The position numbers and the translations under genes are program-made. Of a stretch of 64,000 nucleotides of DNA, positions 55,526 to 64,000 are shown piece by piece. The stretch covers positions 57,226,001 through 57,290,000 of the forward strand of contig OX597818.1 of assembly GCA_951406725.2 (NCBI GenBank), read 5' to 3'. Numbering within the stretch: position 1 is the stretch's first letter; the number at the start of each line of letters is the position of its first letter. The notes beneath the pieces were generated by a model. It saw only the letters and a list, made by a program, of their open reading frames with translations. It did no database searches and was not told the DNA's origin. The DNA comes from Octopus vulgaris. Lineage: Eukaryota.

Positions 55526-55992
<467 letters not shown>

Positions 55993-55995
55993 ATA

Positions 55996-56730
55996 AATTG
56001 AGAATATAATCATTAAAATGATTAAATCAGTGACCCCCGTATTGTAACATCCGTATCGGTAAAATTGATATTTAAGTATACAATTACAAGTATATAATTA
56101 TAGTTAAGGGCGATGGAGGGACAACGCCAATACGCTAGAAGTAGAAGTCAAATGTTTACAAACCACTCTATATATGTTCTCCTTTTGGTATATATATTTG
56201 AATTCTCTAATCATTATATTTGCTCCTGTACTATTGTGACAACAGGCACATGGCTGATAATGGCGATTAGATCTAATATATATCTTGGAAATGTATGTAT
56301 ATATTGGTATTTGTATGCAAGTATTTATCGGTATGTATATATATATATTTCACTTATGTATGGTCAGTATATTTTACTGATGACTGCAAAGTAATTTTTA
56401 TTACAAAGCAGAAAATCCTAAGATTATATCTTAAGATTTTCTGCTTGTCCGAAATTCTTACGATTTCTTGTCCGAAATTCTTAAGAAATATCTTAAGATC
56501 TTCGGCTTGTCCGAAATTTCATAAATTTTGCCAATTTCCCCGCATTCAATTTTGTACCAAAAGGAGAACGTATTTAAAGTGGTTTGTAGATATTTGACAT
56601 CTATTTCTTGGCGTTGTCCCATAGTAATTATATATTTATAATTATATACCTAAATATTAATTTTACCGATATGGTAGTTTTAATACACTGGTCACTGATT
56701 TAATCATTTTAATGATTATATCCTCAATTC
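55996..56730 (+). mobile_element. Foldback element between microsatellites with internal HHR fold
   Basis: 55996-56103 inverted to 56621-56730. Confidence 0.8.
56371..56424 (+). ncRNA. Type-I hammerhead fold, one mismatch at U16.1
   Basis: atttta-CTGATGA-c-tgc aaa gtaat tttt attac aaa gca-GAAA-at-CC-taagat. Confidence 0.6.
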
Positions 56731-56889
56731 ACACACACACACACACACACATACATTCAGGCTGATATACAGAAACACGCCGACACACTAGTGTGTATCA
56801 CGCGCTGTACGCACACAGCGGAGCGTATACTTACAGATAAAGTTTATTAACACACATAGACACATCTTTATCTATCTATCTGTATATAT

Positions 56890-57306
56890 AGAATCAGATG
56901 AATATGGTACTTAAGTTGAAGGCACCAGAATTTAGTATGGTATTATCCATATAATTTAAAATAAGGTGATTATAACCAAATAAGCAACAAGGATATCCAG
57001 AGGTAATGCAGTACGATCGTTTCATGCGACTCCATTTAATTGAACAATGCAAACATTTACATCAATTTCAAATGTAGAGCAATCTTCAGCTGCATAAAAA
57101 TATAGAATTGAGTTAAATTCGAAGGACTCATTTGTATATTTTTAAAAAATCCAAAATCACCAAGAGGATAAGGAGATAGACAAAGAACATGTTTTACCAA
57201 CAACATCTCAGTTGTAACTCTTGTAAATTGATGTAAATGTTTGCATTGTTCTATTAAATGGAGTCGCATGAAACGATCGTACTGCATTACGTTGTTGCTT
57301 ATTTTG
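56890..57306 (-). mobile_element. TA-embedded element with inverted partial copy
   Basis: 56977-57068 inverted to 57225-57306. Confidence 0.8.
57006..57095 (-). ncRNA. Type-I hammerhead ribozyme fold with long stem II and intact core
   Basis: atgcag-CTGAAGA-[t tgc..ctc..cattt..aattga..tgtaaa/tttgca..tcaatt..aaatg gag..gca t]-GAAA-cgatcg-TA-ctgcat. Confidence 0.8.
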
Positions 57307-57314
57307 AATATCTG

Positions 57315-57367
<53 letters not shown>

Positions 57368-62130: not shown

Positions 62131-62197
62131 TATATATATATACATACATACATATATAAATCTATATACATATATGTATATATATATATATATATAT

Positions 62198-62985
62198 ACA
62201 CAATTTAGAGGATTGACCACTAAAAGTGGACACCCTGTATGCCAGTTTTTGCTGAATTTTTTCTTGAGAACACATTCTCCGTGGAAAATGACGATTTTGA
62301 CGTCTATATCTAGCATACAGGTTGTCTACTTTTAGTGGTCAATCCTCTAAATTTTGTATGTAAAAAAATTTTTAATCTTCAGATTTTTTAAAAATATGCT
62401 AGGCCACTGGTTTTAATTGATTAATATCAATTTCTACCCTTATTTAATTTTAAATAAAAAAAAAAATGTTCCCTAGCCGGTAAATTGACTACTGTAGTTT
62501 CTTAACTGCAGAGTAATTTCCGATTTCAGCACGCCAAAGTGAGGGTATTTGAAAGATACACATAAATATAAATTGTGGAACTCTATATAATGCTGGATTT
62601 CGGTCGAGCGCCCTGTATCTATTTCTAGAAATTGTTTCATAAACGACAGACTATACTGATGATCTTGCAGATGTTTATGTATTCATATACGTAAATTATT
62701 AACGAGTGAAACTAATTAGTACATAGGTAGTCGTTTTTTATTTCGTATATTTTCATTTGTCTTGCTTATTTTTACGCTTTGGTTTTTTGCTGAATTTTTT
62801 CTTGAGAACACATTCTCCGTGGAAAATGGCGATTTTGACGTCTATATCTAGCATACAGGCTGTCCACATTTAGAGGTCAGTCCTTTAAATTTTGTATGTA
62901 AAAAATGTTTAATCTTTGGATTTTTAAAATATGCTAGGCCACTGGTTTTAATTGATTAATATCAATTTCTACCCTTATTTAATTA
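62198..62985 (+). mobile_element. Miniature PLE-like element: inverted 5' piece + ~200-bp direct repeats (pseudo-LTRs), in (TA)n
   Basis: 62198-62243 inverted to 62312-62358; 62246-62449 repeated at 62783-62984. Confidence 0.85.
62651..62726 (+). ncRNA. Type-I hammerhead fold with long stem II and intact core
   Basis: ctata-CTGATGA-t cttg..gtttatgtat tcat atacgtaaat..cgag t-GAAA-ctaattag-TA-catag. Confidence 0.78.
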
Positions 62986-62995
62986 TATATATATA

Positions 62996-64000
62996 ATCCC
63001 AGGAATGACACGATGCAAACGAGGACAGGCGAGGTCCCTCCTGAACCTCATCAACACTCTGTACATGGAGCAAGTAATACTCCAACCAACCAGGGAAGGT
63101 AACATACTGGATCTCTGCTTCACAAATAATATGGATCTCATCCATAATGTGAAAGTGACACCGACAGTACTCTCGGATCACAACATGGTAGAGCTGACCA
63201 TGTACGGGCCAAAGGAAAGCATGGACATGCAGCCTACAAGAAACCTCAGAATCTTTCCAGCTTGAACTTCCATAAGGCAAACTGGAAACAAATTGAGAAA
63301 GAGATCCTCAAACAAAACTGGCCTGAATGTCTCTCCTCGCCAGACATCGACATGAAACTTCAACAATTCATGTCTGTAATGCAAGCCATATACTACAAAT
63401 GTGTCCCAGAGAGAAAGGCCACAGTACACAAGAACAAAATCTCCAGTGAGAGGAAAATTCTAATGCGACGGCGTACAAAAGTTTCAAATCGCCTAAACAA
63501 ACAGATTGAAAGCAGTGAAAAGTCCCGCCTGAAAATAAAACTGTTGGAAATTGAAAAAATGTCTGCAACTCTCCCATGAAAAAGAAAGAGCTGGCAAAGA
63601 AGCCTGGGCTATAGACAACATAAAATCTAACCCCAGAGCTTTCTACAGGTATGCCAAAGAAACAGCTAAGGGGCACTGTAGGATAGGGCCACTCCTTGAA
63701 AAGGATGGCACACTCACAGGAAATCCAATGAGGATAAGTGAAATACTAAATGAGAAATTCAAGAGTATTTTCACTCCACCCCTAGGGCATTTTCAAGTCA
63801 GCAATCCAACTGACTTCTTTACCACTGCAGATATAAAATCAGAGGCAGCGATGATTGATTACATCAATATTAAGGAAGACGATGTAATACAGGCTATAGA
63901 TGAAATGAAAACAAACTCAGCTACTGGCCCCGATGGATTCCCAGCAATCCTTCTAAAAGTATGTAAGAGAGTCTTAGCAAGACCACTGCAGTTCCTCTTT
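62996..64000 (+). pseudogene. 5'-truncated CR1-clade LINE ORF2 (endonuclease C-terminus to RT start), runs off the window
   Basis: QPTREGNILDLCFTN..SDH, NFHKANW, NPRAFYRY, SATGPDGFPAILLKVC..LARPL; has frameshifts. Confidence 0.92.

Follow-up and report, generated by a model that had tools for sequence, protein, structure and literature searches.

Results

A protein-free insertion lies in a TA repeat of the octopus genome

We analyzed a 64-kb window of the Octopus vulgaris genome (64,000 nt of contig OX597818.1). Close to its right-hand end lies a unit of ~790 bp with TA repeats at both ends, which the first-pass annotation had described as a miniature element of PLE architecture containing a 45-bp inverted 5′ segment, two ~200-bp direct repeats, and a hammerhead ribozyme (HHR). 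Copies elsewhere in the genome, their ends, and the covariation of the hammerhead back this description. The unit and its neighbor comprise the following features.

62193..62245, minus strand: inverted short arm, the reverse complement of 62310-62362, equivalent to monomer positions 65-117
62246..62985, plus strand: main arm of 1.4 monomers (538-nt period), 5′-truncated and ending with the family's long 3′ end in (TA)n
62246..62449, plus strand: direct repeat 1, the pLTR-like 3′ part of the upstream monomer, tail included
62450..62640, plus strand: monomer interior, non-coding, without PLE protein similarity
62784..62984, plus strand: direct repeat 2, with the short end at ~62900, the tail at ~62901-62985, and the long end at ~62985
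62997..64000, plus strand: neighbor outside the unit, a 5′-truncated LINE fragment that begins after a TA run (weak Exo_endo_phos_2 match, E 1.3e-4, below cut-off)

The inverted arm is slightly longer than first described (53 nt by BLAST, 90.6% identity), and its outer end, which adjoins (TA)n, is the short 3′ end of the family. It carries 5 mismatches in 53 positions to direct repeat 1 and 8 to direct repeat 2. The direct repeats themselves (62246-62449 and 62784-62984) align with 93.6% identity over 204 columns and a period of 538. The repeat is low in GC (0.30) and the unit is indeed ORF-less, the longest stop-to-stop frame wholly within it measuring 69 aa; tblastn with seven PLE protein pieces from the same genome found no similarity below E 0.5 in the unit, and Rfam returned only chance snoRNA matches on it (E 3-8). 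Assembled contigs of four sequencing runs, which are not on record as RNA, cover the unit, and near-identical words occur in sequencing runs of three organism labels, none of them RNA-labelled. The LINE fragment follows the unit directly, as an insertion in the TA run.

Genome-wide copies define a 538-nt monomer

A BLAST search of the whole genome (2.8 Gb, 227 contigs), which had been proposed as a way to define the monomer, recovered a dispersed ORF-less family. A first look gave 2,809 candidate copies, 40 of which were scored; full-length matches are 87-92% identical and lie on many contigs. Exact matches to a 21-mer motif number at least 255 in the genome (control, 0), from which we infer several hundred copies of the family. 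Upstream of the hammerhead the sequence re-enters the repeat itself, and the monomer is therefore 538 nt long and without ORF. Tandem HHRs spaced 534-538 nt apart are found at three loci (L024, L025, and L140), so that at least two consecutive HHR-bearing units are present in the family, as they are in the sister arrays described below, and not in the window copy. With its single type I HHR per monomer, the short, non-coding, low-GC repeat has the makeup of a retrozyme. Four loci (L138, L139, L145, and L146; G000:C10 2.46-2.84 Mb) share kilobases of flank and represent a segmental duplication; we dropped L139, L145, and L146 as duplicates of L138, and also L227, L231, L236, L246, and L253, where one insertion was represented twice. 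The window copy is one aged insertion of this dispersed protein-free family; it is likely decayed and bears no sign of host function.

Insertions have two fixed 3′ ends and variable 5′ ends

Across copies, 5′ ends vary continuously, whereas 3′ ends lie at one of two fixed sites ~85-90 nt apart, monomer position ~117 (short) or 201-211 (long). In 64 copies chosen by their 3′ motif (65 examined after 5 duplicate loci had been dropped, one of them without a match), the main arm terminates at the long site in 41, at the short site in 17, and elsewhere in 6, and dinucleotide repeats are found at the main-arm end in 55. A further 87 copies gave 46 long, 29 short, and 12 other ends. When both ends of two-armed copies could be classified (n = 49; 17 more had an unclassifiable end), one arm was long and the other short in 47 cases, with one long+long and one short+short pair (binomial p 4e-12). 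A single arm is present in 30 of the 64 copies, arm lengths range from 40 to >1,000 nt, and an arm exceeds one monomer in 33 of the 87 copies, the first 30 of which were chosen to span the junction. Polymorphic sites differ by 12-13% among arms and repeats within an insertion, compared with 36% between loci; arms and repeats thus share a haplotype, and each insertion is therefore one event. The flanks are TA repeats, against which no TSD is discernible. The family combines 5′ truncation, partial tandems, an inverted 5′ arm, a tail at one end only, and a microsatellite target, the features of EN+ PLE insertions; the same one-end tail pattern, with a tail of 33 nt, is found in an RT+GIY-YIG element of this genome (L081).

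The window unit contains a type I hammerhead with a long stem II

A scan of both strands located two hammerhead motifs in the window, both of them palindromic: that of the unit and a second one at 57006. Rfam reported nothing at gathering score in the window and missed both. The motif placed at 62651-62726 by the first-pass annotation was confirmed, with a stem I that runs beyond these limits to 62641-62735, and is organized as follows.

62641..62735, plus strand: type I hammerhead; its stem I is extended, with the distal helix at 62641-62646/62731-62736
62647-62650/62727-62730, plus strand: stem I internal loop; proximal helix at 62651-62655/62722-62726
62656..62662, plus strand: core CUGAUGA, N7 being 62660
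62663..62707, plus strand: long stem II, with U·U closure, 4-bp helix, CA/AA 2×2 internal loop, 13-bp distal helix, and 4-nt loop
62668-62669/62701-62702, plus strand: CA/AA internal loop of stem II
62708..62721, plus strand: GAA (62708-62710), stem III (62711-62720), and predicted cut after A62721

Core CUGANGA, GAAA, and UH follow each other in type I order, with a spacer of 45 nt between the half cores. Stem III contains the 10-nt perfect palindrome ACUAAUUAGU (62711-62720), and the GUA site is likewise present, with cleavage predicted after 62721. The palindromic 15.2-16.2/loop 3 region is predicted to permit a dimer, as in the minimal hammerheads of PLEs; in place of their G10.1-C11.1 pair, 7-8-bp helix II, and short helix I, we find U·U, a 17-bp helix II, and an extended helix I. 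An A-C mismatch at 2.1/1.1 breaks pair 1.1-2.1 in this copy: the A at 62655 is a G in 31 of 34 BLAST-picked motifs, and positions 62704 and 62730 are also unlike nearly all other copies. By comparison with its relatives, the mismatch reads as decay of the window copy, which with its single HHR and three near-private changes (62655, 62704, and 62730) is likely a weak or dead ribozyme.

The hammerhead fold is conserved across copies

Comparison of 30 BLAST-picked copies revealed that 96% of 990 cells are paired, compared with 28-45% in slid controls, and that stems I, II, and III contain eight double-sided changes (2 of 500 shuffles as high). Covariation within family A, that of the window unit, is modest and inflated by related copies (four pairs, 77 of 500 shuffles as high; further pair types, 202 of 500). 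All three helices are backed by structure-preserving variation, and their letters differ across five lineages; those of stem III change among copies and lineages while the palindrome is kept. N7 is the sole core position with a shared polymorphism, varying by eye in 7 of 34 BLAST-picked motifs (7 of 41 were left out as short HHR matches of <80 nt), and a fully intact core is present, again by eye, in only 23 of the 34. Core conservation in a larger comparison of 86 copies is not independent evidence, because 57 of them were chosen by core pattern. The core pattern has 138 exact matches in the genome and none in a reversed control, and thus the motif is not due to chance.

The monomer MFE structure is predicted to be a misfold. 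For the copy at L011, a self-dimer in the hammerhead fold is predicted at -57.6 kcal, versus -52.2 kcal for two misfolded monomers. The circular fold has a z score of -5.8 for the 538-nt family (25 shuffles) and -7.1 for a 505-bp sister family, a high degree of self-pairing of the kind expected for retrozymes.

No sharp pile-up of 5′ ends occurs at the predicted cut: by eye, ~5 of 100 listed copies start ≤2 nt away from it, and one of 98 arms starts at monomer positions 470-484. 5′ truncation is more frequent in the stretch of 62 nt immediately downstream of the cut than elsewhere (33 of 56 versus 48 of 141, p 0.002), a T-rich window defined post hoc. Apparent 5′ ends near monomer 118-123 were left unused, being partly deletions and fold-backs. 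Three copies (L002, L011, and L291) start at monomer position 466, within the palindrome of stem III, and have a short fold-back there, which suggests that the palindrome promotes template switching.

Long stem II and U·U closure do not define a subclass

The first-pass annotation had noted a long stem II with U·U closure in both hammerheads of the window, without sequence similarity between them, and had proposed a conserved structural subclass. The U·U closure and the long (45-nt) spacer are present in the unit's HHR, and the two motifs are indeed dissimilar in sequence (score 14, 231 of 300 shuffles as high); for the whole units the score of 32 is above the average of shuffles (23; 4 of 200 reach it) because of one 16-nt AT-rich match. 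The proposed subclass itself was not supported. Long-spacer patterns, defined by 28-58 nt between half cores and a palindrome-like stem III, were matched 7,145 times genome-wide versus 731 in the control and, in a second set, 32,077 versus 2,623 times (~39,000 versus 3,354), with matches from many unrelated families. In 21 distinct motifs drawn from 40 loci hand-picked to span different families, stem II is closed by G-C in 8, A·A in 4, U·U in only 3, and other combinations in 6. U·U closure is found on a short stem II (18 nt) as well, in an RT+GIY-YIG PLE family (L081/L090), and the closure varies even within the lineage of the window element. U10.1·U11.1 has moreover been described (PMC3088659 and PMC7229834). 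Since long spacers are common, U·U is found in 3 of 21 motifs and on a short stem, and U·U is published, the combination defines no subclass. Long stem II arms are common in this genome, and judging by the genome-wide count, a large class of hammerheads there escapes censuses that limit stem II to short lengths.

Compared by sequence and predicted structure, the 57006 motif shares only generic traits with the window hammerhead. It belongs to an unrelated element:

56890..57315, minus strand: comparison element with the 57006 motif (family B), two-armed, with a long and a short end, a 59-nt spacer, and without the CA/AA loop

Family B has 2,192 first-look candidates and a tail of ~85-100 nt; a relative at L098 has G-C closure and a 59-nt spacer. 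Other head-to-head inverted structures were seen by eye near the 57006 element, at window positions 55620-55960 and 56000-56760.

Sister lineages share two internal loops

We located four sister lineages of the window family: A2 (L170, 505 bp, 74% identity), A3 (L176, 75%), A4 (L177, 69% over 243 nt), and A5 (L194, 534 bp), the last being linked more weakly, by a MAFFT alignment and a short match to A4. MAFFT misaligned the lineage hammerheads, and their anatomy was mapped by script. In all lineages the proximal helix II is 4 bp long and CA/AA comes next, whereas the letters of the helices, the closure, and the length of the distal part vary (spacers of 33-50 nt). Most also retain, 5 bp up stem I, a YRGN/NUAA loop that is register-shifted in one lineage. 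The CA/AA loop occurs in all 9 rows of the lineage group and in none of 29 other long-spacer rows, family B included; for the stem I loop the counts are 7 of 9 and again 0 of 29. Both motifs were defined after viewing the five related lineages. In canonical hammerheads, loop 1-loop 2 contacts form with a helix I of 6 bp and a helix II of 4 bp (PMC4209133). Because the loop spacing resembles this arrangement, we infer docking, and the CA/AA and YRGN/NUAA loops likely form a tertiary contact.

The A2 arrays are 99-100% identical, two-armed, and found on many contigs, which points to recent mobility of this lineage. They form a very young 505-507-bp sister family (L170:1320-4721 and L201-L225), with two-armed arrays of up to ~7 monomers without ORF. 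At L223, each arm spans almost exactly two monomers, a length that could come from a circular template. A5 is a 534-bp tandem (L194:1515-3394) of 100% identical monomers with G-C closure and the CA/AA loop.

Other PLEs in the genome

The unit lacks the RT+GIY-YIG ORF of an autonomous EN+ PLE. We found no ORF-bearing element sharing the repeat among 50 loci fetched around GIY-YIG matches (6,136 candidates, 150 scored) or family B, and none among 40 long-spacer loci; sister-lineage loci contained no correctly placed PLE ORF, and 60 HHR-picked loci shared no upstream extension beyond one segmental duplication. For a Poseidon-like RT query, the match examined was the window's own remnant, which does not share the repeat. 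No terminal sequence shared with an identified autonomous PLE was found among the few families sampled, and the tail measures 85-90 nt in the window family versus 33-36 nt in the two ORF-bearing families checked.

Several PLEs came to light in these searches. A young element at L096:906-5672 (G000:C16), with many intact copies, has a 781-aa RT+GIY-YIG ORF after a separate 359-aa ORF; its hammerhead is a U3-A8 core variant and its tail 36 nt long. Another RT+GIY-YIG PLE (L081:2321-5483 and L090:5220-5260) forms a two-armed insertion that is 100% identical over 766 bp; the first and last letters of its 18-nt stem II match family B, and its youngest copies have CCGAAGA in the core. The window also contains a decayed Poseidon-like PLE at 450-2230 (RT; 5,350 genome candidates), with a short-stem hammerhead-like motif at ~2135-2180.

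Discussion

The unit is best read, from the sequence comparisons above, as a non-autonomous PLE derivative of the animal retrozyme kind. We regard it as very probable that it belongs to a dispersed, protein-free 538-bp family with a type I hammerhead, likely copied into TA microsatellites by a PLE RT and GIY-YIG acting in trans. A tandem array would be transcribed, and two hammerheads would pair via their palindromic stem III and cut the RNA into 538-nt monomers, which may circularize. A PLE protein, probably a dimer, would then cut both (TA)n strands and prime reverse transcription at two positions within the RNA, one for each DNA end, and the two truncated cDNAs would be joined head to head. 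For an anole PLE, RT was reported to start at two internal sites in vitro and both strands to be cut, and a dimer was predicted; its hammerhead was dispensable for insertion in vitro (PMC11167929). The long stem II is likely a canonical 4-bp helix II in which the CA/AA loop would replace the terminal loop and dock on the stem I loop, and the distal helix would be a cap whose length is free. More tentatively, and short of an even chance in our estimate, this could be an undescribed extended hammerhead, in which a two-loop activating contact frees stem II to grow, among tens of thousands missed by Rfam and short-spacer descriptors, with the young 505-nt sister as a minimal substrate whose strict long-end/short-end insertions would record a PLE dimer that primes both DNA strands at two sites lying 85-90 nt from each other, perhaps on circular RNA.

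Most PLE insertions are 5′-truncated pLTR fragments, and only 150 of ~6,100 GIY-YIG candidates were scored; the unit might accordingly be a pLTR, the truncated 3′ end of an autonomous PLE that in full-length copies would have its ORF farther upstream. We consider this highly improbable, since the monomer tandems largely refute it: the repeat recurs every 538 nt upstream of the hammerhead, 33 of 87 copies have an arm exceeding one monomer, HHRs recur at 534-538 nt, and sister arrays reach ~7 monomers without ORF. A MITE-like DNA transposon, or a foldback element, that targets TA and has inverted repeats at its termini would account for the many copies with inverted outer ends in TA repeats, and yet it deserves practically no credence, given arms of 40 to >1,000 nt, ends that differ in 47 of 49 copies, single arms in 30 of 64, and continuous polar 5′ truncation; invariant terminal inverted repeats at both ends were not observed.

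More weight attaches to a variant in which the element is mobilized by a PLE and the hammerhead does not cut, being kept as a fold bound by the PLE protein, with an uncut tandem transcript as template and no circle. The lack of a 5′-end spike at the cut site and the misfolded monomer MFE speak for it, as do the dispensable HHR of the anole PLE (PMC11167929) and the failure of 8 of 9 Xenopus retrozyme dimers to cleave (bioRxiv 10.64898/2026.07.22.740005). However, the catalytic core is kept, N7 remaining free, across lineages ~69-80% identical elsewhere, and truncation is raised downstream of the cut (in the post hoc, T-rich 62-nt window, p 0.002), and we find this variant doubtful. The inverted arm, rather than marking a second RNA-primed start, could also arise if the first cDNA snapped back and was resolved by the endonuclease at a fixed site. 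In favor of this, the two arms have one haplotype in common, and the inverted arm of the window copy is nearer to the repeat beside it (5 versus 8 mismatches); the tail has been ascribed to EN resolution (PMC8557442) and self-priming has been discussed (PMC3846280). In several copies (e.g. L009, L021, and L287), however, the inverted arm reaches farther 5′ than the start of the main arm, sequence that a simple fold-back would not supply, and two RT start sites were demonstrated in vitro for the anole PLE (PMC11167929), which makes snap-back unlikely in our view.

Animal non-LTR retrozymes have been proposed as non-autonomous PLE derivatives (Cervera & de la Pena 2020, PMC7229834; Li, Clavereau & Pollet 2026, bioRxiv 10.64898/2026.07.22.740005), and the enzyme that copies them was argued from co-occurrence and pLTR similarity; the window-family insertions carry the PLE footprint directly. 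The sister arrays, being nearly identical, provide a small substrate of natural origin on which PLE priming, the cleavage of dimers, and the formation of circles could be tested. We found no description of the hammerhead variant in the literature searched; long stems may be described in Lunse et al. 2017 (PMC5785218) and in the supplements of Li et al.

Comparison with known systems

Like the animal retrozymes (PMC7229834; bioRxiv 10.64898/2026.07.22.740005), the window family is a self-paired, non-coding, low-GC repeat with one type I HHR per monomer that occurs as monomers to multimers, and axolotl HHR_Amex2 has the same U·U at the base of helix II (PMC7229834). Retrozyme monomers are typically 170-400 nt long (51-972 in Li et al.) compared with 538 nt here, and a 44-45-nt stem II and a 10-nt palindromic stem III set the window family apart. 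Its insertions are mostly sub-monomer and two-armed with explicit PLE ends, a form absent from the accounts of retrozymes in PMC7229834 and in the covered parts of Li et al.

With the EN+ PLEs Neptune, Poseidon, and Naiad (PMC8557442, PMC3846280, PMC11167929) the family shares 5′ truncation, partial tandems, a head-to-head inverted 5′ arm, a tail at one end only, (TA)n targets, and an HHR near the 3′ end; in contrast to them it has no ORF, a tail of 85-90 rather than 30-40 nt, and no pLTR in common with any ORF-bearing family sampled. Naiad 'HHR_half_core' motifs, octopus Naiad being among those tabulated, resemble ours in half cores 35-50 nt apart and a (TA)n target (PMC8557442). At the 3′ end of Naiad_Ovul, GAAA precedes CUGAUGA by eye, the reverse of the window order (PMC8557442); we dropped the idea that the window HHR is the missing Naiad hammerhead on account of this opposite strand order.

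The minimal, palindromic type I hammerheads of PLEs (Cervera & de la Pena 2014, PMC4209133; Perreault et al. 2011, PMC3088659) likewise have a palindromic stem III/loop 3 suited to dimer cleavage and allow U10.1·U11.1, and a 10-bp dimer stem has been drawn for an Aedes hammerhead (PMC4209133/PMC3088659). Their helix II of 7-8 bp and short, ill-defined helix I contrast with the 17-bp, internally looped helix II of the window HHR and with its extended helix I, which has a conserved internal loop, and the window HHR does not have G10.1-C11.1. An element of this kind, a non-autonomous retrozyme mobilized by a PLE, has already been proposed (PMC7229834; bioRxiv 10.64898/2026.07.22.740005).
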